DNA of 64,000 nt from Terriglobia bacterium (GCA_965206645.1 CBDBKE010000004.1:1541552-1605551), one strand, 5' to 3'; shown: positions 319 through 18,921, counted from the first letter of the stretch. A program made the numbers and translations. Notes: a model not told the origin generated them from the sequence alone.

Positions 319-436
319 CAATGCTGTGTCCAAGAAAAGGTGGAGGATGTCCGTTAATTCGTAGAAAGTAGCGACTCTCAACCCCGGCCATACTGTGCCG
401 GGGGTCATTTTCTGCCAAGAAAAGGAGAGAGTCGCT

Positions 437-1246: not shown

Positions 1247-2659
1247 AAGTTCGTAGCGGCGGTTCGGAGCCATCATACTACGCCACCTCCCGTCGAGTGG
1301 CCGACTTTGATCCTTCGAGGATCGCTTTCAACATCCACAGGTCCTGGTACCCCATCAGGCGGCGGAAGTTTTTCTCCGTGGCCAGGAAGCTGGAGGCGAC
1401 CCAGCGCTGGACCATGGCCGCATCCCGCCAGCGGCACACCCGGCGAGTTCGCAACCTCACTCCCGCCTGCGGACTCTCGATGAGATTGGTGGTGGCCAGA
1501 CAGCGATGTAGCGAAGCCGGAAGCCCCAGCCGGTTGATGGTGAAACATTCCTCCAGACCCTCCCGTAAGCTGGCCGCCGCGGCCGGACAATCTCGCTCCA
1601 ACCATTGGGCCAACTTCTCCAGCTTGGCCCTGCCGGTCTTCGGATCCAACCGCCAGGCGGCCCGCATCGCCGCCCGCACCTGGTCCCGCTCTGGCTCCGG
1701 CAACCGGTCCAGGACGTTGCGCAACTTGTGGGCGCGGCAGCGCTGCACCGGCTGCTCGGCCCCGAACACGGCGCGGATCGCCGCCCGCAAGGCCTTCGAG
1801 CCGTCGATCACAAACAGCCGTTTCTGGGCCGGCTGCACCCCTCGCCGCACTAAACCTTCCAGCAAGTCCTGGACGGCCGCGGCGTTCTCCGTAGCCCCCT
1901 GCTGAATCCCCAGCACGTGCTTGTGCCCTTCCGCATCCACGCCCACAGCCGCAATCACGTGATGGTCGCCAAACACTATCCCGTCGATGTAGAGGATCAG
2001 CAACTCTACTTCCTCGAAGCGGCGGTTCAACAGACGTTCTAACTCGGCTGCGGCAGCCTCCATCGTTTCCCGGCTGACCGTGGAGCGCGACACACCCACG
2101 GTGTCCGCCATCTCCGGCAACACCCGCTGGTACTGCCGGGTCGAGACGCCCCGCAGCAAGATATCCAACATCCGGGCCCCCAGACCCTCGCCCTCCTGCA
2201 TGGCTTCGTAGGCCGGGAGGGGAACTTCTTTCCCCGCTCCCCGGCCTGGCCGCCGGAGCCGTGGCCTGTGCACGGCCAGCTTTCTCTCCTCGAAGCGGCG
2301 GTCAGGCGCACCCGTCCCCGCTGGCGCCCATACCAGCCCACCCCACGGCGCCGCCGGCCCTGACGGCGTGGACCGGCCACCTGCGCGGCCGACAACTCCA
2401 GCACCGCTTCAATCGCCGCCCTACCCACCACGTCGATCAGCTCGTCGACGGCTAACCGCGATTGTTCGATCAACTCCACCCAGGGCAGCAGAAACTGCCC
2501 GTGGCGAGCCAGGTAGGCAGCCAGTTTGCGGGAGCTTCGGCTATCGCTCCGGCCTAGGATGTGGTAGCTTCTCTGCACGGCGGTTCCCCTTTCCAGAAAG
2601 TTTCCCAACCCGATTCTACGGAACCAGGTCAGCGAACCGCCGCTCAACTTTCAACTAAA
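1238..2659 (-). mobile_element. IS256-family insertion sequence (~1.4 kb) nested inside another IS256 transposase gene
   Basis: Terminal inverted repeats: AGTTGAAAGTTCGTAGCGGCGGTTCG at ~1241 and its reverse complement (CGAACCGCCGCTCAACTTTCAACT) at ~2633-2656. A transposase gene sits between them. Confidence 0.65.
1278..2647 (-). CDS. IS256-family transposase, split into two overlapping ORFs (2647..2039 and 2273..1278) by a frameshift near 2270
   Basis: The N-terminal ORF (MSGGSLTWFRR...DELIDVVGRAAIEAVLE) and the C-terminal ORF (...YIDGIVFGDHHVIAAVGVDAEGHKHVLG...CRAHKLRNVLD) together make a typical IS256 Tnp. Confidence 0.8.
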
Positions 2660-3195: not shown

Positions 3196-4635
3196 TTAGT
3201 CCTTCTCTTCACGATCCACGATGGCCAGATAGCCCTGCGCCGCCGTGGGGCCGTCGGTCCCGCCGTAGCCGTTGGAGATGAAGGCGAAGCCCTGGCCGTT
3301 TTCAAAGTCACAGTTCACGTCGAGAAAACCCTGGAAGCCCACAGCGATCGCCGACAACACGTAAGTCTCGCTGCCCCAGGACTTGACCTCCATCGTCTCC
3401 ATATCGGCGGGATTGGCCTCCGCACCATAGAACTTGATCTCGCAAGTTCCGGGATAGTCGGAAGCGTTCGTGAAGGCGATCCCGGTGTCAAAGCCTCCCG
3501 CGTTGGTCACGAACGGAAAGAGCAGGCTCGTCTCGCAGGGATCGAATCCGATGACCCGCACGGCAGCGGCATCAGCGAACTGCGGATTTCATTAGTGTCA
3601 GCACTGACGAAACCCACGCTCACCATGCCGTCGGCGATCATGGTGTCTTCTTCCCACGTGAAGCTCACCATCAACGTATTTCCCTGAGTCATATCATTCG
3701 CATCGGTAACGGTGTAAGTGATATCACCATCTCCATCGTTATCCAATGCAACCTCGACCATGGTTCCATCGGCGTCCGCTTCGCCTTCACCGGTCAGCGT
3801 GACTTTCATGCCATCGTCTGCGTTCGTCGGTCATGTTGTCGGCTGTATGGGTGATCATGACTTCCACGCCGTCCGGGATGCCGGAGAAATTGACTTCCAC
3901 CATGCCGTGTCATCAGCATCATCGTTGGTCAACGCCCCTACAAAGCCTTCCATGATCGAGATGCTGGCCATTCCGGTGGTTCCGACCCGGCATTGCAAAA
4001 CGTTGGCATCGTCCACCTTGACGACCAGTCCGGTTTTGACATCCGAGACATCGAACGCCCCCGGCGACACGGACTTGGTGTTCACAGTGAGTTGGGCGCT
4101 TATCTCTCCGTCGTCTCCCACCATGTAGGCGTTGGCTCGGATGCCGGCGATGACCACATTGAAACCGTTGCCGCCAGTTCCCAAGCCGAGATCTGCGCCG
4201 CTGAGTTCCTCCCACACGATCGTGTTCGGGTCCTCATCTTCATCAATCATCGGGCCGTCACCGTCGTCGGCAGCCATCAAACACGTCATCGGCTATAGTT
4301 TGGCCGCCCACAGTCCCAGTAGCGGTCAGCTCAGCAGCGCCAACATAGTTCAAGTCAGCCAGGCTGGTGATTGGAGTGTTCAGCGTAACGCTTAAGGTGA
4401 AATCGGTTACTGCAAACAGCGAGCCGGTGTCCTCTGAAGGCACGCACCGCAGCTCGATGCCGCCGATCTCTTCGGTCGTGCCCTCGGCGCGCACATTGGC
4501 CACTGCATTGTCACCCGTAGCAGCCCGCGCCTCGCACCGTTGCGCCTGGGCCACGCTGCTGCTCAACACGATGGCCGCGAGCAGGGACATCATGACGATG
4601 CCGCTTTTGAAAACTGCTTTCCGAATCTTTGCCAT
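3196..4635 (-). pseudogene. Secreted hypothetical protein gene broken by at least 3 frameshifts. Signal peptide MAKIRKAVFKSGIVMMSLLAAIVLSSSVAQA; Asp/Gly/Thr-rich extracellular protein
   Basis: Four consecutive minus ORFs (4686..4258, 4289..3855, 3809..3507, 3561..3196) overlap in different frames and read as one protein. A GGAGAG RBS precedes the ATG at 4635. Confidence 0.55.
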
Positions 4636-4730
4636 TGCCGTTCTCTCCTTCGATTTTTGAATCGTACTGGTTGAAATTTCTTGCAAAACTTTCTCTTCCT
4701 GCCGCTCGATCTAAAACTGCATTGGATTAC

Positions 4731-5171: not shown

Positions 5172-5441
5172 TCATCGCGGGCTCTGGCAAAACCTGAGGG
5201 AGCGGGACCGAAAGGTTAATTTCATGGCCGTCGCCCGGGAGTAGCAGGCCCTATTGCGGGCCACCAACCGCTTGCGCAGCACCTTCTCGGCTTCGCCTTT
5301 CTCCTTTCGGCCTGTCGACTCCTGTCTGAACTTTCCGTTGTGGTCACGGTAACTCATCCACCAGACGCGTGAACCGCGCCGGGAGTACAGGCTACCGGCG
5401 GCCTTGCTGGGTCTACCTGTCTTGTTCATCGATTCCTCCAT
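5172..5441 (-). pseudogene. Tyrosine (phage-type) integrase, N-terminal arm-binding domain only. The catalytic domain is missing
   Basis: GSLYSRRGSRVWWMSYRDHNGKFRQESTGRKEKGEAEKVLRKRLVA is a typical integrase N-terminus. The ORF ends after 89 aa. Confidence 0.5.
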
Positions 5442-5629
5442 TCACATGAAAGCTGTCGCCACTCGGCCAACTCCGACAGTCGGAAGCGGATCGAGCGGCC
5501 CATCATGCGGTAATGGGGAATCTGCTTTCGCTCGACGTAAGCATACACCAGCGAGAGGCTGCCGCCCAAGAATCGGGCTGCGTCCTTCACCGTGATGGGG
5601 GCATCTGTCGCTTTTCCGTCCAGGCTCAT
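5426..5629 (-). CDS. Excisionase/AlpA-family helix-turn-helix DNA-binding protein
   Basis: ITVKDAARFLGGSLSLVYAYVERKQIPHYRMMGRSIRFRLSELAEW matches the excisionase HTH pattern. A GGGAGGG RBS lies 5 nt before the ATG (MSLDGK). It sits directly upstream of the integrase stub. Confidence 0.65.
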   Translation of the reverse strand: MSLDGKATDAPITVKDAARFLGGSLSLVYAYVERKQIPHYRMMGRSIRFRLSELAEWRQLSCEWRNR

Positions 5630-5789
5630 CGTTCCCTCCCTACTTTCCATACCAAACCACAAGGGAGAACTCCGCGCGGAGAGTCCGTTGCGATTGTGTC
5701 GTTAGTCCTACTCACACTCGGCATCACGTTTGATCTGCTCGATGATCTGATTGGCAAAGCGGCGATGGTATTCCTCTGCCGTCATCGCC

Positions 5790-6749
5790 CTACCCCTCAT
5801 CGTGTTGCCTCCCGATCGGCTCAATGAGCCAGCGGTTCTGTGGCGCGTCGTAACCTTTGACGAGCAAGGCCTCCTCCACAAATCGCCGCCCTTCGCGCCG
5901 CGTCATGTGAATCACCATCGCAATGCCGTCCACGACGCCCCGGCAGGTGACTTCCCAGGGAAGCTCTCCGCCGCCTTGCATGGCGCAACTGGCGAGCCGT
6001 GACAAGGCGCTTTCGGCGTTGTTGGCGTGCACGGTGGTGAGCGAGCCGCCGTGTCCGGTGTTGAGGGCTTGCAGCAGATCGGCGGCCTCCCCGCCGCGCA
6101 CCTCGCCCACTACGATGTGATCCGGGCGGTGACGCAAGGCATGGCGCACCAGGTCCCGGATCGTCACGGCTCCGGTTGCCAGTCCGCGAGCCTCGAAGCG
6201 GACGCAATTGGAGTGCTCGATGCGAAGCTCCAGGGTGTCCTCGATGGCGACGATGCGCTCGTCGTCGGGCAGCAATTCGATGAGCGCATTGAGAAGGGTG
6301 GTCTTGCCCGAGCCGGTGCCGCCTGAAACCAGGATGTTCCGGCGGGTGTACAACATCCGCTCGGCCGCTTCTTTGACGTTCAACGGCAGCGCCCCTTGTT
6401 CAACCAGGTCCGCCGCTGAAAACGACCGTTTACCAAAGCGCCGAACGGTGATCGCCACCTTCGGGCTGGCGGGCGGAACGCAGATTGCTACACGCGAGCC
6501 GTCGTCTAGGCGAGCATCGACGATGGGCGCCGTGGCCGGGTCCAGGCCGAGAGGCCGCGCAATATGGATAGCGGCCCTTTGAAGCGCCGCAGCGGTCAGC
6601 AGCGGGGCCTCGTGGGAATAGAGCTTCCCATGCCCCTCGATCCAGACGTTGTGCGGGCCGTTTATCATGATCTCGCTCACTTCCGGGTCCTCCAGAACAT
6701 CCTCCAGGCCGGGCAAAAACGGTTTCAACAACTCCAGGCCGTCGCTCAT
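5790..6749 (-). CDS. trbB: Conjugative type IV secretion ATPase TrbB/VirB11 family
   Basis: Walker A SGGTGSGKTT and the VirB11/CpaF signature (GEVRGGEAADLLQALNTGH). Next to a T4CP gene. Confidence 0.85.
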   Translation of the reverse strand: MSDGLELLKPFLPGLEDVLEDPEVSEIMINGPHNVWIEGHGKLYSHEAPLLTAAALQRAAIHIARPLGLDPATAPIVDARLDDGSRVAICVPPASPKVAITVRRFGKRSFSAADLVEQGALPLNVKEAAERMLYTRRNILVSGGTGSGKTTLLNALIELLPDDERIVAIEDTLELRIEHSNCVRFEARGLATGAVTIRDLVRHALRHRPDHIVVGEVRGGEAADLLQALNTGHGGSLTTVHANNAESALSRLASCAMQGGGELPWEVTCRGVVDGIAMVIHMTRREGRRFVEEALLVKGYDAPQNRWLIEPIGRQHDEG

Positions 6750-8776
6750 ATCTTTCCTTCTGCTTTCGCACGCCAGTAGGGAAGCGACCGGGGCAGATAG
6801 TGGGGTTTGAGGTACACGCGGGTTGCCGGCAGTGACTGTGCGCCGTCGTAGGGCAGGCAGATTGCTTGGCAGTTGGAGAGCAGGGCAAACTCGCGGGGCT
6901 GAAACACTGCCTCGCGTTGTTCGCGGAAGGATTTGCTGGCTCCTACGCTGCCGGCGCCGCCACCGGCCTGGGCCGAGAGCATGGATACCTCACTTTGCTT
7001 GGCAGATTCGGTGATGGTATAGGAGGGTTTGATCTTGGCTACCTGCCCGCACAGAGCCGAGGCGGTTTGAGCGCTGGCGTCATCGCTCAAGGAAAGGAAT
7101 ATCCGGGTGCGGAGCGTTTGCAGCAGGGTGCGCCACGCCTCGCCGCTGCCGAGAACGGAGCGCAGCGAGCTGATTGATTGCGTGGCGACGATCAGAATGC
7201 AGCGGCACTGCCGGGTGAGGGCAAAGGATTTCTCGTCGCCGGAAGGATCGTCCTCGCCGACCGAAGCAAACGACTGGTACTCGTCGCAGATGAACACGGC
7301 GGGCCGGAAGTATTGATCCGGCGCTTCCTTCATCTGCGCCGGTCGCCGCAGGAGCGATTGCAACCAGGCGTTCTTGAGCATTACTCCTACAGCTCGTGCC
7401 AGCGCCGGGTTGCTGCCGGCCGGCATATTCAGGGCCAGCACCTTGCCCGACTCGATCAGCTTGTCGAGGGGCGGCAAGCTCTGCCGTACTCTCGTTCCCA
7501 GTCCCGGCTGTTCGTCTTGCTTTGGCTCTCCATTTCCGTTCGCCGCCGCCTTCTCCGGTGGCGGTGGTGGACAGAACACCCGCGCCACGCTTGGCAGGTC
7601 GAATATGGACAGAAAAACTGAGATGCCCTCGACGATGCTCGACCGGATTTTGTTGTCGATCATTCCCCAGTCGTGTTGATACCAGCGATTGACGGCCTCG
7701 ACCCGCTTGCGAATCTCTTCTGTCTTTACGCTCTCGGTCCACTCGATCTTATATTCGATCTGGAGTTCTTTGAGCTGGGCTACAACCGCTGGGCTGTGGT
7801 CCGTGTAGAATGTGTTCTCTTGCTCGATCGGAATCCATTTTCTCTTCCCGGAGCGCAGCGAGGGGATGTTTGCTCCATAGTCCGTGGCGGATATAAACAC
7901 GGCGCCCTCGCGAAGATCGCTGGCGTATGCTTCGGCCTCTTGGATTTTGGCCGCAAACAGTTCCTTGTCGATGGCGCAGTGATAGACTTGCTGCAATGTG
8001 ACCCATTGGCCGGGGAACACCCGGTAGAGTTCGATGATCCAGCGGACCAGGTTGGTGTAAGCCTGTTGCCAAAACGGCTCCTTCCCTTTGCCGAACAACT
8101 GGTTGAGCAGGGAGGAAACGGTGTAGGCCAGCGAGTAAGAATCAAGCCACTCTGCCGAGAGTGGATTCCATTGCCAGCGGCCCTCCATCCCCAGCTCGAT
8201 GTAATCTTCCTCCCGGCCCGCGTCGGCAAGGATTCGCCGGATTTCATAGCAGAAATCGCCCTTGACTTCCAGCACCAGGCCAGCCGCCCGGCGCTGGGGA
8301 TCGCGGGCCTGCCATGACAAGATTTGCTCTGCGAATGGGCGCATGCAAGCCGAGGTCTTGCCGGACCCCACGGCGCCGAAAATTGCCACTCCGGTGTACA
8401 GGCCGCGCTCCGGGATAGTGAGCCAGGAAGGGTTGCGAGATTCGACGGCTTTGACCGGGTGGTGAACCTCCCCAACAACGATCGCCGGCCCGGCGTCTTT
8501 TGCGGGATTCAGGGGCCACGTTGGCAGCATTCCAATGTTCGGCATAGCGATGCCCCAAGAATTAAACCAGACCCGCCAGACCGTGATGAGAAACAGTCCG
8601 CCGACGATGACGGCGGCGGCTGGCGCGAGGTAGTACCACCAGACGATCCAGGTGTAGAAGTTGGGGGTGTGATAGAGCACCAGGTCGAGCATTGGATCGT
8701 CGCCGGGCATGGGGAAAGGCCGGTAGAGGAAACCCCAAGCGGAGCAGCCAAGCCCAGCAACTATCAGGATCGGATG
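6746..8776 (-). CDS. traG: Type IV coupling protein (TraG/VirD4 family)
   Basis: N-terminal TM segments and Walker A GAVGSGKTS; ~670 aa. GGAGG RBS before the ATG at 8776 (MKIRHPIL). The upstream in-frame extension to 9196 runs through a repeat-rich non-coding region and is not believed. Confidence 0.8.
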   Translation of the reverse strand, partial: HPILIVAGLGCSAWGFLYRPFPMPGDDPMLDLVLYHTPNFYTWIVWWYYLAPAAAVIVGGLFLITVWRVWFNSWGIAMPNIGMLPTWPLNPAKDAGPAIVVGEVHHPVKAVESRNPSWLTIPERGLYTGVAIFGAVGSGKTSACMRPFAEQILSWQARDPQRRAAGLVLEVKGDFCYEIRRILADAGREEDYIELGMEGRWQWNPLSAEWLDSYSLAYTVSSLLNQLFGKGKEPFWQQAYTNLVRWIIELYRVFPGQWVTLQQVYHCAIDKELFAAKIQEAEAYASDLREGAVFISATDYGANIPSLRSGKRKWIPIEQENTFYTDHSPAVVAQLKELQIEYKIEWTESVKTEEIRKRVEAVNRWYQHDWGMIDNKIRSSIVEGISVFLSIFDLPSVARVFCPPPPPEKAAANGNGEPKQDEQPGLGTRVRQSLPPLDKLIESGKVLALNMPAGSNPALARAVGVMLKNAWLQSLLRRPAQMKEAPDQYFRPAVFICDEYQSFASVGEDDPSGDEKSFALTRQCRCILIVATQSISSLRSVLGSGEAWRTLLQTLRTRIFLSLSDDASAQTASALCGQVAKIKPSYTITESAKQSEVSMLSAQAGGGAGSVGASKSFREQREAVFQPREFALLSNCQAICLPYDGAQSLPATRVYLKPHYLPRSLPYWRAKAEGKI

Positions 8777-8860
8777 GCGTATTTTCATGGGGCTTGCCTC
8801 CGGCGCCTCAGCGCCCGCTTGGGGTTCAGGTTCGGAGCCTTCCCGCAGGGACAAATCAGA

Positions 8861-9160
8861 CGAGAGCGACCCCCAAAAAAGGGGGGGCAGGGTATGCCAC
8901 AAACCCTGCCACAAACCCCTTTTCCTGTTTGCCGATAGAGCGGCAAAAAAGGGGGGGTCGCTCTCGTCTTTCCCCGCCCCTCTCCTTCTGGCGCGGGATG
9001 GCCTGGTAGTAGCAGGAAAACCACTGCGAGGCAAAGAAATAGACAAAATGAGTGTTGCCACAAAAAATGCCGATTCTTGCCACGCCCCCCCCCTTATATA
9101 AGTGGCAAAAAAGATCGGCACGGCCACCGTTTGTGGCAGGCCAAAAAAACGCTCTATCTC
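8861..9160. promoter_or_regulatory. Repeat-rich intergenic region, candidate oriT or operator. It has a 13-bp inverted repeat GAGAGCGACCCCC/GGGGGTCGCTCTC flanking G/C tracts, and TGCCACAAA direct repeats with inverted TTTGTGGCA copies
   Basis: Read directly. Located between the replication-relaxation gene and the coupling-protein gene. Confidence 0.35.
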
Positions 9161-9195
9161 GGAAACGTCCACTGGAGTTCCATTGCTGCGGTTCA

Positions 9196-10164
9196 TTAGA
9201 CTGTCTCCACCACCTTCACGCGGTCAGAAACCCACGTCTCGAAGCCGTCGATCGTGGCTCCGATTGAGCCGCTTGTCTTGGGCAGGTCTTTCAGTTCCAT
9301 CAACCTGTCCGAGATTTCCTCGACACTGCCGTACTTCCTTATGATCCTCATGTCCACATTGATAATTGCGGCCTCGATCAGCTTGATTTCCGCCTGCACG
9401 TTCGGGTCGTTCCGGCTCGGTCCATCTGCCCGCTGACTGCTCTGCTCACCCCCTCGGCTGCTCCACGTCTTTAGCGCCGCTTCGGCCCGGATTGTGGCTT
9501 TGTAGTCCGCTCCGATTACGACGGCGCGGACCTCGATGCCTTGCAACCGCAAAGCCTTCCAAAGCCACTCATGCGAGTCGCCCCACGATCGCAACTCGGT
9601 ATCGGTATCTTTGCCCGGATCGACGTAGACGAACGATGAGGATTTAGCATCGCAAGCGATAGGCAGTTTCAGGGCAAAGTATCGGGTTTGTGTCCCCACG
9701 GCTCCCTGATAGACCCGCTTGGGCAAGCGCCTGCGGTCGATGCCCAGTAAATCGAAGAAAGCGACCTTTTCCTGCTCGGTGGGCAGCCAAGGAAGCTCCG
9801 GGTTCTCCAGAACATAGTCGAGCGAGAGCAACCGCCGTAGCATGACGGAATCATCCCCCTCTCGGCGGTGCCGGACGTTCTCAATTCCCAGCTTGCGGTA
9901 AATCTCTTTGTTGGATATTCGGACCGCCTTCGGTCCACCGCGTCTGTTAGGAAGAGCGTCCTCTATGGCAAGCCTGCGCTCCACCATGTCGCGCACAAAT
10001 CGCAATGCTCGCTTTCGATCCGACACGGCATCGAAGAAGTGGCAGAATTGCGCCCTCGTGAACACGCCGCTATGCAGACAGACCAGGGCGATCCACTCCG
10101 CTTCGCGGCCCTTCCAGCCGAACGACTTCAGGGCTTTTTCTCGATCATGGAGATGTTTAATCAT
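9196..10164 (-). CDS. Replication-relaxation family protein (PF13814-like), a possible non-canonical relaxase or mobilisation protein
   Basis: The N-terminus LHDREKALKSFGWKGREAEWIALVCLHSGVFTRAQFCHFF fits the L-x-RD...L...R....T..Q...FF winged-helix pattern of this family. Context: between T4CP and trbF. Confidence 0.45.
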   Translation of the reverse strand: MIKHLHDREKALKSFGWKGREAEWIALVCLHSGVFTRAQFCHFFDAVSDRKRALRFVRDMVERRLAIEDALPNRRGGPKAVRISNKEIYRKLGIENVRHRREGDDSVMLRRLLSLDYVLENPELPWLPTEQEKVAFFDLLGIDRRRLPKRVYQGAVGTQTRYFALKLPIACDAKSSSFVYVDPGKDTDTELRSWGDSHEWLWKALRLQGIEVRAVVIGADYKATIRAEAALKTWSSRGGEQSSQRADGPSRNDPNVQAEIKLIEAAIINVDMRIIRKYGSVEEISDRLMELKDLPKTSGSIGATIDGFETWVSDRVKVVETV

Positions 10165-10166
10165 TG

Positions 10167-10829
10167 CTACTCGCCGGTCACTAAAGCCCGGTCGCCTCGC
10201 AGGTAGGTGACAATGATTCCCATAGGGTTGAAAACCATCAATTCGGTTGGAATTTCATCCAGGAACATGAACTGCATGGAGACTGTCCAGCGTTCGCGCT
10301 GGCTCTCGACCGCATTCACCAGGCGCACCAGGTCGAAGTCGGCGGTGGCGCCGTGGGGTTCCTGTTGGTTGGCCTGAATCCGCAAGACCACGCGCTCGAC
10401 CTGGAGCTCTTCTCTGGTGACTCCTGCCGCCAGCATGGCGATATTCTGGCCTTCGGCGCGGAAAGCCTCGTTGGCTAGTCCGGTGGTCAAAAAGCGTAGG
10501 CTGCGGGACCACGCTTGTTCGACCGTAGCCCGCCGCCGGGAGTAGTAGTCGTCGATGAAGCGATTCAGAAAATACTTGGTGGTGGGGTCCAGCGGATCGG
10601 CCTGGGCCTCGACCGTCTCATAGGCCAGCGCCTCGGCCCGGCCTACCTCGTCCACGCGGACGACGATCGGTCGCGGCGCTTCAACCGACGACAGCCGGAT
10701 GATGTTGACTACCAGCAGCAAACAGAGTCCTGCCAAACCCATCGACAGGACGCGCAAGTGCCGGTTGGAGTGGATCGCCTCGCCCCAAATCTCGGCGTAG
10801 GTCTTTGCGGTTTCGTTCTCTTTGCTCAT
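10167..10829 (-). CDS. trbF: Conjugal transfer protein TrbF (VirB8-like)
   Basis: N-terminal TM then an NTF2-like domain. The start at 10829 overlaps the trbL stop (TAATG) with a GGAGGG RBS. The longer ORF to 11021 is an artefact. Confidence 0.7.
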   Translation of the reverse strand: MSKENETAKTYAEIWGEAIHSNRHLRVLSMGLAGLCLLLVVNIIRLSSVEAPRPIVVRVDEVGRAEALAYETVEAQADPLDPTTKYFLNRFIDDYYSRRRATVEQAWSRSLRFLTTGLANEAFRAEGQNIAMLAAGVTREELQVERVVLRIQANQQEPHGATADFDLVRLVNAVESQRERWTVSMQFMFLDEIPTELMVFNPMGIIVTYLRGDRALVTGE

Positions 10830-11827
10830 TACAACCCTCCTTTTGCCGCCTTCGCTGCGCCACCGGCAGCGGCTCCGGTGCCGCCCGCCGCCGCCATTGC
10901 CGCTCCCGTGATCCCGGAGCTGGTGACGGCGCTGCCGGTGACCAGCATGGAAGCCAGCTCGCCGACCTTGAGGGATGCCAGAATGCCGGCCACGAACAGC
11001 GGCAGGATAATCAGCACCCATCCTCCCATTACGGTTATGTCGAAGCTGATGACCTGGTTGGAGAAGGTAGTCACATAGCCCAGCGCCACGCCCATGAACA
11101 CCCGCATGACGGCTCCGGCCAGTGCGCCGTAGAGGCTGAAAACGATCAAGGATCGGAACCAGCCCCAGAACAGAAACGACATAGGCTCAAACAACAACCA
11201 GGGAATGAACAGCGGTCCTAAAAAGACAAGAATGGCAATCGCGAGCTGCGCCCAAAGCACCTGAGCGTAGGTGATGCAATACAGCAGCACCAGCATAGTC
11301 ATTGCAAAAATCATCATGATGGTGGCGGAGAACAACGTCATGATGGCGGCTCCGCCGGCTGTTATCAGGTCCCAAATCTGGTAGCCGTCCCACGCATCGG
11401 TGATGCGGGTCAAGTGGGTGTTGATCATGTTGGATAACTCGGTCCGCATGGCGGTTCCGACGTCGGCTATAAACATATCCATCAACCAGTTTCCGCCCTC
11501 CACAATCATGCTCGGAAAGGTGTAGGCGTTTGCTGGCACAGGCAGCGGGGTATCGTAGAAGTGCAGCATCACCCACGGAATCCAGAGGCCGATAATGAGC
11601 TTGATTAACTCCCACGGTTGGAAAGAGCCGGACAGGGCGATTTTCACCCCTGTCCAGACAATCATGATGGAGGCAAGCCCGGTCCAGAGCTGTTCTCCGG
11701 TAGACAGCAAAAGGGGGCCGCTGCCCCCTATGATGTTGTTCATTACTTGGGTCAGGAGACTTTCAAAGTTGTCGAGGTCTCCTGCCGGGATGTTGGTCGG
11801 AACAACTGGATCAATCTGTAATTGCAT
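10829..11827 (-). CDS. trbL: Conjugal transfer protein TrbL (VirB6-like)
   Basis: Polytopic membrane protein with a Gly/Ala-rich C-terminal tail (AAMAAAGGTGAAAGGAAKAAKGG), typical of TrbL. Confidence 0.8.
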   Translation of the reverse strand: MQLQIDPVVPTNIPAGDLDNFESLLTQVMNNIIGGSGPLLLSTGEQLWTGLASIMIVWTGVKIALSGSFQPWELIKLIIGLWIPWVMLHFYDTPLPVPANAYTFPSMIVEGGNWLMDMFIADVGTAMRTELSNMINTHLTRITDAWDGYQIWDLITAGGAAIMTLFSATIMMIFAMTMLVLLYCITYAQVLWAQLAIAILVFLGPLFIPWLLFEPMSFLFWGWFRSLIVFSLYGALAGAVMRVFMGVALGYVTTFSNQVISFDITVMGGWVLIILPLFVAGILASLKVGELASMLVTGSAVTSSGITGAAMAAAGGTGAAAGGAAKAAKGGL

Positions 11828-11871
11828 TGCTGTCTACCTCATTCTGCGGACCGGACTGCCGTCGAACGGAT

Positions 11872-12240
11872 TTACGGGGCGTACATGGGATGCAGTTGCA
11901 CTTTGAGACTGTCTCCGCCGTCGCTGCGTGAAGAAATCCCGGCAATCCGTTCGTTGAATACAATCTGCCCTTGCTGCCGATCGGCGAGCTGCGCTGCTAC
12001 GCGCTCCCGCCGGCGGCGTTCGGCTTCTAGTTCTTCCGCCGCTTGCTGCGCGGCCTGGAAGGCTTGCAACTGCGCCATTGCAGCGGTCAACTGTCCCTGA
12101 GTGACCATGCCGGCAACCTGGGCCTGGCCTAACGCGGTGCCGGATACGTTGCTGTTAGACCGCAGTCCGTTGTAGGAATCGAGAGCGGATTTGATCGCCG
12201 CCGACGCCTCTGCGGCGGCATCGGAGACGGCGTAATTTTG
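11872..12240 (-). pseudogene. trbJ: TrbJ-like conjugal transfer protein, C-terminal fragment. The N-terminus with its signal peptide is missing
   Basis: Gln/Ala-rich coiled-coil (QLTAAMAQLQAFQAAQQAAEELEAERRR). The in-frame upstream stretch NYAVSDAAAEASAAIKSALDSYNGL... ends abruptly at ~12240. Confidence 0.45.
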
Positions 12241-12349
12241 GCAGGGGGCATGTCAAGAATTTTTTCCGAAATGTGCCAGGAAAAAACAGGCCACTAGGGG
12301 GGACGCGGGGGTAGGGGCAGTAGGCATAGGTACCGCAATGTTTGCCGCC

Positions 12350-12530
12350 GCACTACGAGATGAACGGCGAATCTGGGGGACGGCCGGCGAATCCGGCCCG
12401 GTTACTGGCCGGTCAAGGAGGTTACCGGTCGGTCAAGAAATAGCGCTCGTCTGTGTGGAATCTCCTGGACTCCGTGAATATCCGAATCGCCAATTTTGTA
12501 GGCCGCCCGATTTGTAGGCCGCCCGACGGG
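12350..12530. repeat. Three successive pairs of short tandem direct repeats: GGCGAATC x2, GTTACyGGyCGGTCAAG x2, TTTGTAGGCCGCCCGA x2
   Basis: Read directly. Lies at the junction between the truncated trbJ and the 3' end of the secretin gene. Confidence 0.5.
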
Positions 12531-12593: not shown

Positions 12594-14870
12594 TTACTCG
12601 CTCTCCTGTCTGAGCGCCTTGCGCAATTCCTTCAATTTGTCGTGGAACTCCTTGGTGGCCATCTTGGCCTCGCCCATGTCCTTGATCACCCTGGGCGTGA
12701 GCAGGATGATCAGCTCGTTGCGGCTGGTGGAATCGCGGGTGGTGCCGAACAATAGCCCCAAGCCGGGAATGCGCCCTAACAGCGGCACTCGATTGGTGGA
12801 GACGATCCGGGTTTCCGAGATGATGCCGCCCAGGGCAATGGTCTCCCCGTCCTGCACCGTCACCTGAGTGGACACGGAACGCTTCTGGATCGAAGTCAGA
12901 GTACCGCTGCTGGTCGGCACGCTGACTTCCTGGTCGATACGCAACGTCACCAACCCGCTGGGATTGATGCGCGGTGTCACCGACAGGATCACGCCGGTAT
13001 CCCGCCGCTGGAAGGAACTGACAGGTGAGATGGTCCCGAAGGCTACGCCCTGCTGAGTCTGGAGGGGAATCTCCTGTCCTACCTGGATGCGCGCCTCGGT
13101 GTTATTGCTGGCCAAAAGCGTGGGCGCGGAAAGCACCCGTGTGCGTCCCCGGTTCTCCTGGGCATTCAGGAACAGGAACAACTCGCGGCTGCGGCCTATT
13201 AAGGTGCCCACCGAAGCGCTCAGGCCGGCGTTAGGAAACGTCTCCGTCCCGAAAGCGCTGAATTGCCCAACGGGATTCCGGGAGGCGCTGCTGCGCCGCT
13301 GGAGGAACGCTTCGACCCCGAAGGACAGCGCCCCCGATAAGGCGACCTCGTACACCTTGGCTTCAATGAGCACCTGCCGGGGCGCCACGTCCAGCCCCTT
13401 CATGGTCTCAAGGATGACTTCGTAGTCCTGCGGGGTAGCCTGGACGACCAGGGTATTGTTGATGGGGTCCGGAACAATGCGCGCCGGACTCTGCAACATT
13501 CCGCCCGGCACAGCAGCTATGAAGATTTGCCTGGAACCCCGGTACATAGAACCCCGCGATGTTTGGCCCACCCCGCCGACAGGAAACGACACACCTCCGG
13601 GCGTCATTCCTCCACCAGCCGCTCCCATCCCGCCGGGCGGTATCATCCCCGGCGCTGTCATCCCGGGCGCTGTCATCCCGGGCGCCGACGCTCCTGTTGC
13701 CTCCGCACCCATCATCGGCCGAGCTGCTCCGTAAAGGCCCGCCAATACGAAAGCCAACTCCCCCGCCGCCCTGTTTTCCACCTTGTAGGCAAAGTTCTGC
13801 AGTCCCCCACGGCGCACGGGCTTGTCCAGCTTCTCAATCCACTGCTGCACTTCCGAGTACACCTCGGAATTCGGAGTCGCCACCAGGATGGAGTTGATTC
13901 GCTCCAGTGCAATAAACCGCACCGCCGAGCCTTCCTTCGAGAGGGCATACGCCTTGAAGATTTCCTCCAGGTCCTTGACCAGGCTGCTGGCCTGGCTGTT
14001 CTCGATGGCAAACAACCGGACCCGCTGCTGCTCCAGCGCCGAGGTGTCAAACAGGTTCACCATCCCCATTAGCCGCTTCAGGCTGCGGCTGGTGTCGGTG
14101 ATGAGCAGGATGTTGCCCGGCTCGTGGGTCACGATGTGGCCCGCTTCCGACAGGTAGCTGCTCAGGATTTTCGACATATCCGCGGCGGTGACGAAGCTGA
14201 GGGCGACCACGTTCATCACCATGCGGTCATCAGGCGGCAGGCTGGCTCCAGTGGGATCCTGGGTGAGCGGTAGCGGAACACGCGGCGCTCCCTTCAGGGG
14301 CACGATCCGCCAGAAGCTGCCGCTCTGGACGGCCGAGGCCCCGTTGGCCCGCAGGATGGCCTGCAGCAGGGGCAGCAGGTCCTCATGACTCAGGTTGCCC
14401 AGGGTGTTGATGTTCACCACACCCTTCACCCCAGGGTCCACGACATAGTTCATCTTGAGTTCGGCGGCAATGATTCCAATCACCTGAAGCAGGTTGGCAT
14501 TCTCCAGGTGGAGGCTGATGCGCGCCCCAGCTCGCGTCTTCCCCGTTGCCGGTGCCGCTTCCGCCTCCTGCGCGGGAGGCTCTGCCGATGGCTGGTCTTG
14601 AGGCTGGGCAGTCGGTTGTTGCGGTTCCTGAGCCTGAGGCTCTGTCGGTTCCCCCTGCGCTGGCGGCTGGACCGGTTGCTCGGTTTGAGACTGCGCAGGT
14701 GGTTGCGCGGGTTCCTGGACCGGCGCGGCCTTCCTCGGAGTGCTGCCTGCGGCGACCGTCGACATCAGCCCCCAAACTGCTAAAACTAGGACGGCGCTAC
14801 CCAGTTGGCCTCTCAGTACACCGGATGTGAAATTCCGCATCCTCTTCGTGGTTCGTTTTATTCGGCTCAT
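12594..14870 (-). CDS. gspD: Type II secretion system secretin GspD
   Basis: N0/N1 domains and a secretin C-domain (VLSAPTLLASNNTEARIQVGQEIP...ELIILLTPRVI). Signal peptide present. Last gene of the gsp operon. Confidence 0.9.
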   Translation of the reverse strand: MSRIKRTTKRMRNFTSGVLRGQLGSAVLVLAVWGLMSTVAAGSTPRKAAPVQEPAQPPAQSQTEQPVQPPAQGEPTEPQAQEPQQPTAQPQDQPSAEPPAQEAEAAPATGKTRAGARISLHLENANLLQVIGIIAAELKMNYVVDPGVKGVVNINTLGNLSHEDLLPLLQAILRANGASAVQSGSFWRIVPLKGAPRVPLPLTQDPTGASLPPDDRMVMNVVALSFVTAADMSKILSSYLSEAGHIVTHEPGNILLITDTSRSLKRLMGMVNLFDTSALEQQRVRLFAIENSQASSLVKDLEEIFKAYALSKEGSAVRFIALERINSILVATPNSEVYSEVQQWIEKLDKPVRRGGLQNFAYKVENRAAGELAFVLAGLYGAARPMMGAEATGASAPGMTAPGMTAPGMIPPGGMGAAGGGMTPGGVSFPVGGVGQTSRGSMYRGSRQIFIAAVPGGMLQSPARIVPDPINNTLVVQATPQDYEVILETMKGLDVAPRQVLIEAKVYEVALSGALSFGVEAFLQRRSSASRNPVGQFSAFGTETFPNAGLSASVGTLIGRSRELFLFLNAQENRGRTRVLSAPTLLASNNTEARIQVGQEIPLQTQQGVAFGTISPVSSFQRRDTGVILSVTPRINPSGLVTLRIDQEVSVPTSSGTLTSIQKRSVSTQVTVQDGETIALGGIISETRIVSTNRVPLLGRIPGLGLLFGTTRDSTSRNELIILLTPRVIKDMGEAKMATKEFHDKLKELRKALRQESE

Positions 14871-14883
14871 CTCAGATTCTGCC

Positions 14884-15681
14884 TCATTTGGTTTTCTGTG
14901 CCGCCGGGAGATCCTCATACCAGGTCTGTACACCAAATGGCGTTACCCGGTCGTATCTCTTCCGGTTACCTTCGACGGTGACGGTTAAATAGCGATCCCC
15001 GGTGGAGGAGCCGGTCGCTGGGGCGACAGCGGGAGCGGTGGCGGCTCCTGGGGTGGGTGTAGACGCCGGCCCTGCAGAAGAAGCTGAAGGGGCAGCCGGA
15101 ACAGCGGTCAACACCTGGTCGGCCGCGGTGCCGGCCGGGCGGGCGGGCCGGACTGCGGCCCGCCCGGCGGCCTGGCGCACGTTTTCGGCTGACTCGTAGA
15201 CATCAATGGTAGTCTTTTGGCCCTCGAATTCGATGACCACCTGGTGCTCGGCGATTTCCGCTACGCGATAGCCACCGATTTCATCGCCCACCTTGAGCCG
15301 GCGGAATGTGGCCTGCCTGGCCTGTTGCGGCTCGGCCATCAGGGCCACCGGACCGCTGCCGAGGTTCAAGGTTCCAATCACCAAGGGGACCGGCGGCCGG
15401 ACCTTGGATACGCTTGCCAACGCCTGGTCGTTATTGCGGTCGGGGCTGAACAGGTTGCGGGTGAGCAGCACGGAGTAGCTGTCCGGGACAGCCGCCAGTC
15501 CAGCTTCAGCCATGCCTGCTTTGGACACACCTGGCCCGGGGGTGGCTGCTGAGGTCACAAACTGCTTGTAGCGGGCATGATTGCTCTGCCAGGCATTGTG
15601 GATGGCGGCGGCAACCCACATCGCCAGCGTCAAGAGGGCTAGGTTGAGATAGGTTATCGGTTTGCGCATGCTTTCTCTCAC
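14884..15681 (-). CDS. gspC: GspC/PilP-like secretin-interacting protein
   Basis: N-terminal TM (LNLALLTLAMWVAAAI), a Pro/Ala linker, and a beta-rich HR-like segment VGDEIGGYRVAEIAEHQVVIEFEGQKTTIDV. Sits immediately upstream of the secretin. Confidence 0.55.
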   Translation of the reverse strand: MRESMRKPITYLNLALLTLAMWVAAAIHNAWQSNHARYKQFVTSAATPGPGVSKAGMAEAGLAAVPDSYSVLLTRNLFSPDRNNDQALASVSKVRPPVPLVIGTLNLGSGPVALMAEPQQARQATFRRLKVGDEIGGYRVAEIAEHQVVIEFEGQKTTIDVYESAENVRQAAGRAAVRPARPAGTAADQVLTAVPAAPSASSAGPASTPTPGAATAPAVAPATGSSTGDRYLTVTVEGNRKRYDRVTPFGVQTWYEDLPAAQKTK

Positions 15682-16340
15682 GCTTTGGGAGTTGGCGCGG
15701 GCTCGGCGAACATCAACCCGCGAATCACCATTCGCACCGCCACCATCTTTTGCGGCTTTTGTGGTTTTTGTGGCCGGCCGGGCCGCGAGGGCAGCGCCCT
15801 AATGGAGAGCTGATCCAGCGCCAGCACCTTGCGACTGGCGTGGGCAGCCAGCAGAAAACTCGTGAGCTGGTCCAGCCTGCATTGGAACGACAGCGACAAG
15901 GGCACGACGTTATAGCTCGCCCCGGCGACCTTGAGAACCCGCACCGGCCGGAAGGCGGCGTTGCGCATTTCCATGCCCTGCTTCGCCATCAGTTGCTTGA
16001 TCACTTCCTGCAACTCGGCCGCAGCCAGGGCCGACGTGCTGCTGCTCAGCAGGCCTTTCTCGGCTTCAGCCAGACGAGCCTGCATTTCCTGAAACTCCTT
16101 TTTCTGATCTGCGGCCAGGGCTACAAGTCGCCGGTATTTGCGCAGGGTCTTCTCCTTCAGTGGCAGCGAGGCACGGAGCTTCTCGGCGGGGTCCATGACG
16201 GGCAAGACAAGCAAATCCAGCAGCAGGAACAGAGCAGTGGCAGCTGCCAGCAAGAGCAGAGCCCGCTGGTCTCGAGCGCTCAAAGAACGCAAGAAAGACG
16301 CAGCTGTCGCTGGCTCCCTCTTCCTGCCTCCGTTAGTCAT
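15678..16340 (-). CDS. gspM: GspM/PilO-like inner-membrane assembly protein
   Basis: Single TM followed by a coiled coil (KKEFQEMQARLAEAEK) and a periplasmic domain. Position after gspL. Confidence 0.55.
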   Translation of the reverse strand: MTNGGRKREPATAASFLRSLSARDQRALLLLAAATALFLLLDLLVLPVMDPAEKLRASLPLKEKTLRKYRRLVALAADQKKEFQEMQARLAEAEKGLLSSSTSALAAAELQEVIKQLMAKQGMEMRNAAFRPVRVLKVAGASYNVVPLSLSFQCRLDQLTSFLLAAHASRKVLALDQLSIRALPSRPGRPQKPQKPQKMVAVRMVIRGLMFAEPAPTPKA

Positions 16341-17883
16341 GACTGGCCACCTCCTCCGCTCGTGCCGGCGTCTCCCGCAACCGCATCCGGATCTGGAAGG
16401 CCTCCCGCCCTTGTTTGCTCTTGGTGATCGCGGTGATGAATTCCGGCTGTTGGAAATGCGGCGACTGATTGATGGCCTGTAGAATGCCGGAAGCGGATTG
16501 GGCTTGCCCGGAGGCCGTCACCTGGTTATCCTCAAACTGGAGTGTTTGCAGCCAGGCCGCATCGGGAACCAGGCGAGTCAGTTCCTTCCACGCCTCGAGC
16601 CTGAGCGCGATATCCTGCCGCTGGCCCTGTAGCAGATCCCATTCCAACAACAGCGCCTGGTGGCGGGAATTCAGCTGTTCCAGACGCTCCACCTGGGGCT
16701 GCAGCTTGCTGATCTCCGAGTTCAACCAGGAGGAATAGAAGCGGTCCTGCACCCATGTGGTTGCGAGCCAGGCAGCGCCGAGCAACAGCACAAGTACCAC
16801 CAACGCATAGGCCGAGGTATGTGTCCAGCGGGAGCGCCAGTGGGAACGCCAGTGAGAGCGGTAGCGCTTCTCCGCCGGCAGCAGATTCCAGCGCAGGCCA
16901 GCTGGGGGAGCCATCAACGGGAGGCGGAGCTCGAGGCCCGGCAAGGCCGCTGCGTAAGCCACAAGATGCTCCTTCAGCCGGAACTCTGCCGGCCCCGCCT
17001 CGGGGGTGACCACGGGAATACCCTCTGCCGGGGACCCGCTCGACGGCGCAGAGTCTCTCACCGCCGCCTGTTCTCTGACTTGCTGTTCTCTGATTTCGGG
17101 TTCCGGCGCGATGTCTTCGCCGCTTTCCAGCATCTGCGGGCTATCCTGGGGATCGAGTCGCAACTCGGCCGCGCAAAGCTCCACTTCGCGCTGCAACGAG
17201 GACCCGGCCGCAACTTCTTTGGAATAGAACGCGCCATCGGGCGCGACCCCCAGCAGTTCCACCACCTGCCCGCAGTGATCCAGCAACACCAACGGGCGGC
17301 GCAGTCCAGGCATGTTCCGGGATTGATTCAAGGAAGCCCCGCGCAGCGCCTGGTACAACACAGCCGTGGAGAGGGTAAAGCCGGCCACGTCCACGCCCGC
17401 CTGGCCGAACCACTGGTAGAGCTGATCGAGCGCACTCTTCTCCACAAGCGCCACAGCCACCCGCAGCCGCCTTCCGAGGCCCTCCTCCGAGGCGCCGGTC
17501 CCATTGCCCGCGCCGCGCGCAGGCGATTCGGGCAGCAGCGCGTAGTCGAAATAGACGCTGCCTTCCTCGAAGGGGTGGAGCTGATCTACCTGGTAGGCCA
17601 CCGTCTGGCCCAGTTCTCGCCCAACTTCGGGGGGCAATTCCAGCGTTCGCACCAGGCCGGCTCCGCGCGGGAGCGCCACCAGCGCGCTGGTCGTCAACGC
17701 ATGATTCTCTTCGCGGAAGCGCCGGTACTGCTGGGCCACCTCGGCCACCGGCCGGGTGCGGAAATCCTCAATCCGGAGGAATCCGCTGACGCGCAGGCGA
17801 TGCCCGCGGCCGCGCAGGGAGACGGCTTCCAGGTGACTCCCCCGAATCGCAATGCCGATGCTGGTCCCCAGGTGGACGGTCAT
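16333..17883 (-). CDS. gspL: GspL-like protein: cytoplasmic actin-like (PilM-like) domain, TM, then a PilN-like periplasmic coiled-coil domain
   Basis: 516 aa. The N-terminus is ATPase-fold-like, followed by TM YALVVLVLLLGAAWLATTWV and a C-terminal coiled coil. Operon position matches gspL. Confidence 0.6.
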   Translation of the reverse strand: MTVHLGTSIGIAIRGSHLEAVSLRGRGHRLRVSGFLRIEDFRTRPVAEVAQQYRRFREENHALTTSALVALPRGAGLVRTLELPPEVGRELGQTVAYQVDQLHPFEEGSVYFDYALLPESPARGAGNGTGASEEGLGRRLRVAVALVEKSALDQLYQWFGQAGVDVAGFTLSTAVLYQALRGASLNQSRNMPGLRRPLVLLDHCGQVVELLGVAPDGAFYSKEVAAGSSLQREVELCAAELRLDPQDSPQMLESGEDIAPEPEIREQQVREQAAVRDSAPSSGSPAEGIPVVTPEAGPAEFRLKEHLVAYAAALPGLELRLPLMAPPAGLRWNLLPAEKRYRSHWRSHWRSRWTHTSAYALVVLVLLLGAAWLATTWVQDRFYSSWLNSEISKLQPQVERLEQLNSRHQALLLEWDLLQGQRQDIALRLEAWKELTRLVPDAAWLQTLQFEDNQVTASGQAQSASGILQAINQSPHFQQPEFITAITKSKQGREAFQIRMRLRETPARAEEVASHD

Positions 17884-17926
17884 TTCCGATACGCTCGCTT
17901 CTTCAAGTCCTCGTTCATAGCCCAGT

Positions 17927-18919
17927 TCACAAAATGACCCGCTGCTCTTCTACTGCCTGTTCATCCCAGGCCACTAGCTCGGTTCGGCCGTTGGCTTCCC
18001 GGCGGAAGATGGCGCGCACCGACGCTCGCGTGGCTGAGCCGCGGAGCCGGCCCGTGGCAGTCAGGGTGAACAGGTCCGAGATTCGATAGATTCCAAGGTG
18101 GGGCAAAGCCTCTGCGGGGATCGAAATTGGCAACTCGGTCAGGCTTTGGTAGAGCTTTTCCCGGCGTCCGGCGACGACTGCACGTACCCGCTCCTGGTCC
18201 ATGCCCGGCACGCTCAGCAACGCCTCGTAGGGAGCGTAGTTCACATCCAGCCTTGCGAAGTTCCCATACACCGTCAGCAGGCGGTTGAACCCGCCCCGCC
18301 GAACCAGCCGGTCATCCGCGTCGCGCTCCATCCAGCCGTAGAACAACTCTGGCGTGACCCCCTTGACCAACAGCAGTTCTTCGACCCGCTGGAAGGGCTG
18401 GTGCGCTGCCTGGTAGGGCTGCGCCAGACCGGCGTAAAACTGGTCAAAGACGCTCCCGACGCTCGAGGTGGCCGGCGCACGCCAATCGGCAATGGCCCGA
18501 GTGATCTCCCGGACGTCCATGTTCCCCACCCCGGCGGCTTGAAACAGCGTTTGCAGCCGCTCCACCGGGGCGGTGTTGACGTTCAGCTTGCCTGCTTCGG
18601 AGGCCACCCGGACGCGCGCCGTCCCGGTAGCGTAGGAAAACTCCAGGTAGGGCCGAGTGGGTTCGTAAAGCAATTTTTGTTCCGCGTCCCGCAAGCCGGG
18701 GGTTTGTACCAAGTAGAGCGCCTGTTCCAGAGCCCCGCGCGCCAGGAAGCGGCCTTGCTCAGCTTCCAGGCGGTAGCGGGTGGCGGCCAGCTCGGTTCGC
18801 ACCGAAAGAGCCAGCGCCAGTGCTACCAGCGACAGTGCAGCCGTCAGCCACATGACGAGCAACAAGACGGCGCCTTGCTCCGAATTCGAGCTCGGACTCC
18901 GGCCCACCGACTTTGGCAT
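17927..18919 (-). CDS. gspK: Type II secretion minor pseudopilin GspK
   Basis: Start MPKSVGRSP...GAVLLLVMWLTAALSLVALALALS matches the GspK N-terminus. GspK-like domain with helix-hairpin-helix region. The longer ORF to 19126 is an artefact. Confidence 0.75.
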   Translation of the reverse strand: MPKSVGRSPSSNSEQGAVLLLVMWLTAALSLVALALALSVRTELAATRYRLEAEQGRFLARGALEQALYLVQTPGLRDAEQKLLYEPTRPYLEFSYATGTARVRVASEAGKLNVNTAPVERLQTLFQAAGVGNMDVREITRAIADWRAPATSSVGSVFDQFYAGLAQPYQAAHQPFQRVEELLLVKGVTPELFYGWMERDADDRLVRRGGFNRLLTVYGNFARLDVNYAPYEALLSVPGMDQERVRAVVAGRREKLYQSLTELPISIPAEALPHLGIYRISDLFTLTATGRLRGSATRASVRAIFRREANGRTELVAWDEQAVEEQRVIL

Positions 18920-18921
18920 TT

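Follow-up and report, generated by a model that had tools for sequence, protein, structure and literature searches.

A predicted winged-helix and nuclease-fold protein beside an oriT-like region in a small conjugative element of soil Acidobacteria

The window analyzed here is a stretch of 64,000 nucleotides from a Terriglobia bacterium (GCA_965206645.1, CBDBKE010000004.1:1541552-1605551), and the gene under study, termed X, lies in a remnant of a small conjugative element that encodes a type IV secretion system (T4SS). On the minus strand, the genes run in the order VirB6/TrbL, VirB8/TrbF and X, followed by a VirD4/TraG-type type IV coupling protein (T4CP) and VirB11. Both the X gene and its position are confirmed, and X shares an operon with VirB8. 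The initial annotation had placed X between the T4CP and trbF genes; this order is right, but 407 bp of non-coding DNA resembling an origin of transfer (oriT) separates X from the T4CP gene. X probably recognizes the transfer origin of this element of soil Acidobacteria, and it may cut this origin as well. The features of X and of the adjacent region are as follows.

9196-10164, minus strand: gene X, 322 amino acids from an ATG start (open reading frame, ORF, and translation)
9880-10164, minus strand: predicted N-terminal winged helix-turn-helix of X, residues ~1-95
9430-9867, minus strand: predicted central restriction-endonuclease-like domain (PD-(D/E)XK fold) of X, residues 100-245
8789-9195: non-coding oriT-like region, 407 bp, between X and the T4CP gene
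8858-8874: inverted repeat arm 1, 17 nt, AGACGAGAGCGACCCCC on the plus strand, 100% complementary to 8953-8969
8953-8969: inverted repeat arm 2, 17 nt
8895-8915 (8895-8903 and 8907-8915): two tandem 12-nt repeats with TGCCACAAA, in the loop of the inverted repeat (Tandem Repeats Finder, period 12, 100% match)
9056-9064: third copy of TGCCACAAA, exact match
9130-9138: fourth copy of TGCCACAAA, in inverted orientation

The true start of the T4CP gene is the ATG at 8788, which yields a protein of 680 residues and is preceded by a GGAGG ribosome-binding site. Both the start and this site are kept in nine of ten aligned loci, and in the tenth (L002) a fragment of the T4CP gene alone remains. T4CP genes of 680 residues are also called in loci L055-L059, and the 10-locus alignment contains no conserved reading frame upstream of the T4CP start. 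With this start at 8788, the 407 bp between the two genes are therefore non-coding. The mechanically called T4CP ORF (816 residues from 9196) spans the entire region, and automated annotation could thus hide it. An Rfam scan of 8789-9195 returned no family and one sub-threshold chance match. The 17-bp inverted repeat is perfect, with 78 nt between its arms, and as single-stranded DNA this segment has a folding energy of −45.9 kcal/mol (z of −9.7 relative to shuffled sequences). Across the ten loci, 96.4% of the cells in the inverted repeat are paired. Compensatory changes are found in 3 pairs and 11 cells (A-T to G-C; G-C to T-A or A-T), one-sided changes are essentially nil, the observed covariation score is reached by 0 of 500 shuffles, and slid controls show no compensatory changes. 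Based on this alignment, the inverted repeat is maintained by compensatory changes. The exact TGCCACAAA sequence occurs four times in the window, with all copies within 8895-9138, and an AT-rich patch, TTATATAA, is located between the repeats. DNA that carries TTTGTGGCA is a candidate ligand of X.

The full-length AF2 (AlphaFold2) model of X, with a predicted local distance difference test (pLDDT) score of 73.8, consists of an N-terminal winged helix, a central alpha/beta domain and a helical tail. When residues 100-245 are modelled alone with a deeper alignment, the pLDDT is 92.6 and the predicted template modelling score 0.86, and the topology is alpha-beta-beta-beta-alpha-beta-alpha. X is thus predicted to be a winged helix followed by a restriction-endonuclease fold, the two-domain plan of the MOBC/Replic_Relax proteins (PMC3424549; PMC12857230). 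The N-terminal winged helix-turn-helix that had been read from the sequence in the initial annotation is borne out by this model (residues ~1-95). Residues 44-54, which form the start of helix 3 of the winged helix, are hypervariable. A search of the full model against the PDB with Foldseek gave weak MarR matches alone (E ≥ 0.13), and the PDB holds no MOBC structure for direct comparison with X. MarR-type regulators consist of a winged helix flanked by N- and C-terminal dimerization helices, with a total of ~140-150 residues; a MarR-type identity of X was rejected, as the winged helix alone (80-100 residues) aligns at this E value and a nuclease-fold domain follows. The likeness of X to Nt.BspD6I/AlwI-type nicking endonucleases is at the level of the fold alone, with 9% identity and an unrelated gene context.

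X belongs to a large, conserved and uncharacterized family, with 3658 relatives in 90%-identity clusters and 2200 representatives in 50%-identity clusters; none of the 120 relatives listed out of the 3658 has a Pfam domain or a name. The relatives are found in metagenome-assembled genomes of Terriglobia, Bryobacterales and other Acidobacteriota, where a single genome often carries several of them. The initial annotation had associated the family with actinobacterial and other elements, but the hosts are not actinobacterial: the relatives of X come from Terriglobia and other Acidobacteriota, and the family of orf302, a second conserved gene of the element described below, extends to Gemmatimonadota. 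A tblastn search with X against 72,556 plasmids gave 0 matches. The conserved polar residues of the nuclease-fold domain are R110, R111, D116, E130, E132, K133, R150, R161, K166, D182 and H198. In an alignment of 147 sequences, mostly 50%-identity cluster representatives, D116 is conserved in 96%, E130 in 90%, E132 in 78% (with a further 17% D), K133 in 91%, R150 in 93% and R161 in 91%. A distant relative, P0259 (L061:2429-3361 and L062:1070-2002, both short contigs), is flanked by a 203-residue ORF on one side and a RepB_primase gene on the other, and an ArdC-type zincin is encoded close by. The family is therefore also found outside T4SS operons. Fusions of ArdC with X (P0147, P0174) were considered as a sign that X travels with DNA, and this was rejected; P0147 is probably a deletion product, on an 8.8-kb contig of 4x coverage without a T4SS.

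To describe the complete element, loci L055-L059 and L006 were combined. The left part of the intact gene order is a short ORF, ArdC (ArdcN and zincin), orf302, orf106, VirB2, VirB3, VirB4, VirB9, VirB10 and orf295. The right part continues with VirB6, VirB8, X, the oriT-like region, T4CP, VirB11, an excisionase-like helix-turn-helix gene, a 393-residue tyrosine integrase that matches PF00589, and tRNA-Arg(CCT). In two copies with unrelated left flanks, similarity begins at ~570 bp before the short ORF, or ~770 bp before ArdC. The left end is placed where this shared sequence starts, which gives an element of ~17 kb. A copy of the tRNA-Arg 3′ end that would mark attL is absent within 10 kb, and the exact left end is thus not defined by a repeat. 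The intact element is a ~17-kb element of Terriglobia that integrates beside a tRNA gene and carries a VirB-type T4SS resembling mating-pair formation type T (MPF-T). At locus L003:14400-16900, two integrase-bearing segments lie in tandem, with a tRNA-like 3′ fragment after the first and a tRNA-Lys gene at 16800-16875. This arrangement suggests a tandem accretion of elements at the tRNA site.

Scanned over its full length, left end to tRNA gene, the intact element has no gene of a recognized relaxase family, and neither do variants that combine ArdC-orf302-orf106 with primase/helicase genes after VirB11. Upstream of ArdC, the 61 ORFs of seven metagenomic relatives yielded no relaxase and matched replication, toxin-antitoxin and integrase families alone; in L007, the DNA left of ArdC holds an inserted type III restriction-modification system. 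The Relaxase, MobA_MobL, TrwC, Mob_Pre, TraI_2 and Rep_trans models of Pfam, which stand for the HUH relaxases (MOBF, MOBP, MOBQ and MOBV), MOBH and MOBT, give no match for X or for the intact or variant elements. In the rest of the window, no relaxase is present among the 25 families listed of 38. These scans uphold the view in the initial annotation that a canonical mobility (MOB) relaxase is missing, in that the genes scanned in the window and in the intact relatives contain no recognized family.

The second candidate for a role at the origin is orf302, which encodes 302 residues and lies next to ArdC in intact elements (L006:794-1699 and homologues). Its family comprises more than 2100 clusters, Gemmatimonadota included, all annotated as hypothetical. 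Aligned over 20 homologues with identities as low as 26%, orf302 has a winged-helix-like N-terminal half and the invariant residues H149-D150, E179, P223-D224, E228, E242, Y248 and K256. No Pfam or NCBIfam relaxase model matches orf302. Compared with X by BLASTP, it gives no match, and profile comparison gives a weak match in the winged helix (E = 0.002, probability 13%).

The sequence of X varies together with the core of the short repeats. This core is GTGGCA in the window, L010 and L007, GTAACA in L001 and L004, GTGACA in L005 and L006, GTACCA in L013 and GTTCCA in L016, and between related elements the repeat copies change their core in concert (GG, AA, GA, AC or TC). Elements that share a core have X proteins of 95-96% identity, against 52-85% for elements whose cores differ; across three different cores, VirB11 is 92-98% and orf302 97-99% identical.

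The nearest model for a relaxosome protein of this architecture is the MOBC class. PF13814 is among the PD-(D/E)XK families (PMC3424549), and its counterpart in the classification of relaxases is MOBC (PMC5357655, table 1). As MOBC is a recognized MOB class, the absence of a canonical MOB relaxase and the PF13814-like assignment of X in the initial annotation are not independent claims. The MOBC prototype TraX combines an N-terminal winged helix with a restriction-endonuclease-like active site and binds five direct repeats that lie 70-120 bp from the nic site, and in MOBC systems a single protein does both the binding and the cutting (PMC12857230). Nicking of oriT by this class is site- and strand-specific and leaves no stable covalent protein–DNA adduct (PMC12857230). 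Like X, the MOBC proteins (TraX of pAD1 and pAM373; MobC of CloDF13) have 240-320 residues, no HUH motif and a winged helix with a PD-(D/E)XK-type domain, and their genes lie near a VirD4/TraG-like T4CP gene and a region with a long inverted repeat and short repeats. The winged helix-turn-helix and the PD-(D/E)XK-fold domain are both found in the model of X, and the T4CP gene and the repeats of 8789-9195 are close to its gene. In pAM373 (L020), the segment at 14392-14629 between the T4CP and relaxase genes contains nested inverted repeats (18 and 25 nt) and, after them, five direct repeats of 12 bp; in CloDF13-type plasmids, the relaxase gene is likewise near or next to a T4CP-like gene. Reportedly, pAD1 and pAM373 share an inverted repeat and differ in direct repeats that set relaxase specificity, which is taken here as a lead rather than as a result. 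Unlike the MOBC proteins, X has an extra helix with E130-x-E132-K133 and a helical C-terminal extension of ~75 residues, has no significant sequence or profile similarity to them, and is partnered by orf302, which is itself closer to the MOBC motifs. In addition, X is found in Acidobacteriota, whereas MOBC hosts are Bacillota and Enterobacterales. A non-HUH relaxosome protein with a restriction-endonuclease fold and a winged helix is therefore already known from MOBC; new in X are its motifs, its added elements and its partner protein, and membership in the class is not demonstrable.

Modelled on the MOBC relaxases TraX (pAD1) and MobC (CloDF13), the following mechanism is proposed. The N-terminal winged helix of X would bind the short TGT-NN-CA repeats in the 407-bp region. 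The restriction-endonuclease-fold domain would then make, or help to make, a strand-specific cut at or near the conserved inverted repeat, and the complex would be passed to the neighboring coupling protein. X is best understood as the relaxosome protein that recognizes the origin, for which we infer DNA binding, nicking and interaction with the T4CP, and it probably works together with the conserved orf302 protein. More tentatively, and with somewhat more doubt than confidence, X may itself be the nicking enzyme, a relaxase that has no HUH motif and resembles MOBC but whose active site is rearranged (candidate residues D116, E130, E132 and K133). An autonomous role is favored by P0259, with its RepB-type primase neighbor, and by the X-to-integrase blocks of five loci (L001, L002, L003, L007 and L008). 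In these loci, the DNA is unrelated to the element up to a point 5-30 bp ahead of the X start codon, where homology sets in, and in L001 and L003 the block from X is complete through the integrase. The breakpoint, at ~9970-10000 in locus coordinates (8493 in L008; the upstream sequence is identical in L003 and L007), suggests a recurrent breakpoint or a shorter mobilizable module that extends from X to the integrase.

Several observations weigh against this interpretation. X lacks the MOBC catalytic motifs (H in helix 1; hPD; FE[VI]ExTxK..RRY) in the equivalent strands. Where an alignment of TraX gives H102, E129, D152, E170-x-E172, K176 and R180-Y181, and MobC has H, VPD and FEVERTVK..RRY, X carries D116, E130-x-E132-K133 and D182 instead, with no PD or (D/E)xK in the expected strands; the L017 relative has Q in place of D182. 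Alignment of the X family to a 25-sequence TraX alignment with hhalign gave a probability of 2.9% and an E value of 0.015, which is not significant. The nuclease domain of X alone gave E = 0.22 against the TraX family, and hmmsearch between the two families gave E > 0.3 in both directions, with tiny databases. Some ten elements with five core types underlie the covariation of X with the repeat core, and the two elements with an AA core differ in the helix-3 sequence of X. In L063, the X and T4CP genes overlap with no intergenic region, and the origin is therefore not always located between them. In addition, every complete element seen carries both X and orf302, and in L017 the orf302 stop overlaps the start of the X-like gene directly downstream (ATGA). 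From these observations, orf302 may be the nickase and X a specificity factor only.

In the strongest alternative, X would be an accessory origin-specificity subunit with a catalytically dead nuclease-fold domain, and orf302 would make the cut. On the aligned sequences this is possible, although somewhat unlikely. The series H-D, E, P-D, E and K, which is invariant in the 20 orf302 sequences and absent from X, fits the MOBC motif order better than X does; when orf302 is aligned to TraX with hhalign, its H-D, P-D and E242 pair with H102, D152 and E172, a match that is not significant (E values of 0.16 and 0.094). The possibility raised in the initial annotation, that a bona fide relaxase is present elsewhere in the element, is borne out in part, by the motif order of orf302 in intact copies but not by any relaxase model. 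Translational coupling of the two genes in L017 and the presence of both in all four element variants also favor a division of labor. The near-invariance of orf302, set against the variation of X and the repeats, fits a conserved nickase that acts on the inverted repeat together with a variable specificity factor. In contrast, orf302 itself has no Pfam or NCBIfam relaxase match, and the nuclease fold of X keeps several acidic and basic residues that hardly vary, which would be surprising in a dead domain. The five loci with breakpoints 5-30 bp upstream of the X start keep X without orf302, and in MOBC systems one protein does both jobs (PMC12857230). Known pairs of a relaxase and an accessory protein include NikB/NikA of R64 and PcfG/PcfF of pCF10 (PMC12857230), and by comparison X may parallel the variable origin-binding factor and the near-invariant orf302 the conserved nicking enzyme. 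In the known pairs, small ribbon-helix-helix proteins mostly serve as the accessory factor and HUH enzymes as the relaxase. The two partners considered here would instead be 300-residue winged-helix proteins, with a predicted nuclease fold in X and nuclease-type motifs in orf302. It is unlikely that X and orf302 form a two-protein, non-HUH relaxase of a new MOB class, in which one protein reads the element-specific repeats and the other cuts at the conserved hairpin. If true, this would explain the transfer of seemingly relaxase-less VirB-type (MPF-T-like) elements in Acidobacteriota and Gemmatimonadota. The X and orf302 families each comprise thousands of sequence clusters.

Less probable still is a role of X outside the relaxosome, either as a repeat-binding regulator of a T4CP/VirB11 promoter or as a replication initiator at an origin of replication (oriV) with iterons. 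Autoregulators and iteron initiators usually combine a winged helix with repeated binding sites ahead of the next gene, and the AT-rich patch TTATATAA lies between the repeats. Variant elements carry primase/helicase genes, one X relative sits beside RepB_primase, and a 2012 survey of PD-(D/E)XK proteins called Replic_Relax a predicted transcriptional regulator (PMC3424549). Against an initiator, the repeats of 7-12 bp occur in both orientations at irregular spacing, unlike 17-22-bp phased iterons, and X has one winged helix and a nuclease fold versus the two winged helices of RepA/Pi/TrfA-type proteins. A long-range inverted repeat with compensatory change is typical of transfer origins, and with X as a regulator or initiator the element would be left without any origin-recognition candidate.

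The initial annotation had proposed that X is PF13814-like, which finds no hidden Markov model support: X and its relatives fail every sequence test (hmmscan, hmmsearch and hhalign). The thresholds for membership were the PF13814 gathering score and NF041423 (MobC_subf). As positive controls, TraX of pAM373 ("replication-relaxation family protein") matches PF13814 with E = 5e-6, just above threshold, and MobC of a CloDF13-type plasmid matches NF041423 with E = 2e-73. The latter sequence was taken from a 96%-identical Klebsiella plasmid with an intact mobC, replacing NC_002119. In NC_002119 (CloDF13, L019), the mob region is frameshifted, and PLSDB types this plasmid as "non-mobilizable" despite its being the prototype MOBC plasmid. 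The Pfam search that had been recommended for X gave no match at E ≤ 0.01, and PF20783 (E = 0.14), an irrelevant family, is the single match at E ≤ 10. Among 37 diverse members of the X family (30-64% identity to X), 0 match PF13814 at E ≤ 1, and a few have weak MarR, IclR or Crp helix-turn-helix matches. No NCBIfam relaxase model, NF041423 included, matches X or six of its relatives, and searches of PDB sequences with the single sequence and with the profile found no relative. That X is nonetheless a true, divergent PF13814 (Replic_Relax)/MOBC member is the weakest of the alternatives and very doubtful: it shares the two-domain plan and the neighborhood of MOBC relaxases, true TraX relatives often fall below the PF13814 threshold (27.1 bits for pAM373 TraX versus a cut-off of 25.3) or have no precomputed match, as is the case for many, and the hhalign alignment is colinear over 167 columns (P = 0.015), pairing the LVCLHSGVFTRAQ and LCLLHELRIxTxxQ helices and the HPxLxWLPTE and HPxLKxxxSE segments, but the profile results given above, the 0 of 37 members and the absence in X of a counterpart to the catalytic D and ExE..K..RRY of TraX and MobC argue against it.

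Surveys of conjugation class a T4SS without a recognizable relaxase as non-conjugative, and X sits in elements that current tools would call relaxase-less. These elements are ~17 kb long, tRNA-associated and multicopy in soil Terriglobia genomes, and they carry two uncharacterized winged-helix proteins and an origin-like region. Should the relaxase be X, either by itself or in combination with orf302, a large conjugative class in major soil phyla would be escaping the profile libraries, Pfam, CONJscan and MOB-suite among them. Relaxases of the restriction-endonuclease type, few of which have been studied so far, would then be far broader than thought, and the concerted change of the TGT-NN-CA core and helix 3 of X would provide a natural system for the evolution of origin specificity.

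The copy in the window is a decayed remnant and thus of small biological weight for the window itself. By blastn against L010 and L006, homology to intact elements covers 5243-12237, with the following features in addition to those of X and the oriT-like region.

6746-8788, minus strand: T4CP (VirD4/TraG-like), 680 amino acids, PF10412 and PF12696
5790-6749, minus strand: VirB11/TrbB ATPase, PF00437 (E = 2.8e-49) and TIGR02788 (E = 7e-67)
5426-5662, minus strand: excisionase-like small helix-turn-helix protein, conserved after VirB11 in related loci; the L022 equivalent matches PF12728 (HTH_17)
5172-5441, minus strand: N-terminal fragment of the tyrosine integrase, first ~66-70 residues homologous (tblastn to residues 1-66 of the 393-residue L006 integrase)
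10167-11021, minus strand: VirB8/TrbF, PF04335 (E = 2e-15)
10829-11827, minus strand: VirB6/TrbL, PF04610 (E = 1.7e-11)
11875-12252, minus strand: C-terminal fragment of orf295, residues 170-295 (126 amino acids; tblastn), at the left truncation point, with DNA homology ending at 12237

In the intact element, orf295 follows VirB10. The window has no VirB2, VirB3, VirB4, VirB9, VirB10, ArdC or orf302, and it lacks most of the integrase. What survives there is a dead, truncated element, but its X gene is intact. The closest copy, L010, encodes an X that is 95% identical; it has kept the whole T4SS region and has lost the integrase and most of the excisionase gene. Other remnants (L011, L012, L014, L015 and L018) have kept of X the 3′ part alone, together with the oriT-like region and a T4CP gene that stops after its first 180-290 codons. 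Their neighbors are often the same unrelated ORF clusters (c46, c52, c63 and c66), which are possibly an insertion element that targets the T4CP gene.

The rest of the window consists of housekeeping DNA, a type II secretion cluster and insertion sequence (IS) elements. The complete-looking type II secretion system (T2SS) cluster at 12594-25400 on the minus strand (secretin GspD, T2SS M, PilN-like, T2SS K and others) abuts the truncated end of the remnant. It was rejected as part of the element, as it is absent from all related loci, and is chromosomal. Short tandem repeats at 12400-12437 and 12495-12526 (20-nt and 16-nt units, ~2 copies each) lie just past the end of homology at 12237. After the integrase fragment, four small ORFs rich in Asp, Gly and Thr (142, 144, 100 and 121 residues) occupy 3196-4686 on the minus strand, and these four are also found downstream of the L010 copy (72-83% identity). 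Finally, two Mutator/IS256-family transposase genes lie in opposite orientation at 395-1246 (plus strand) and 1278-2273 (minus strand), the first of which looks truncated.

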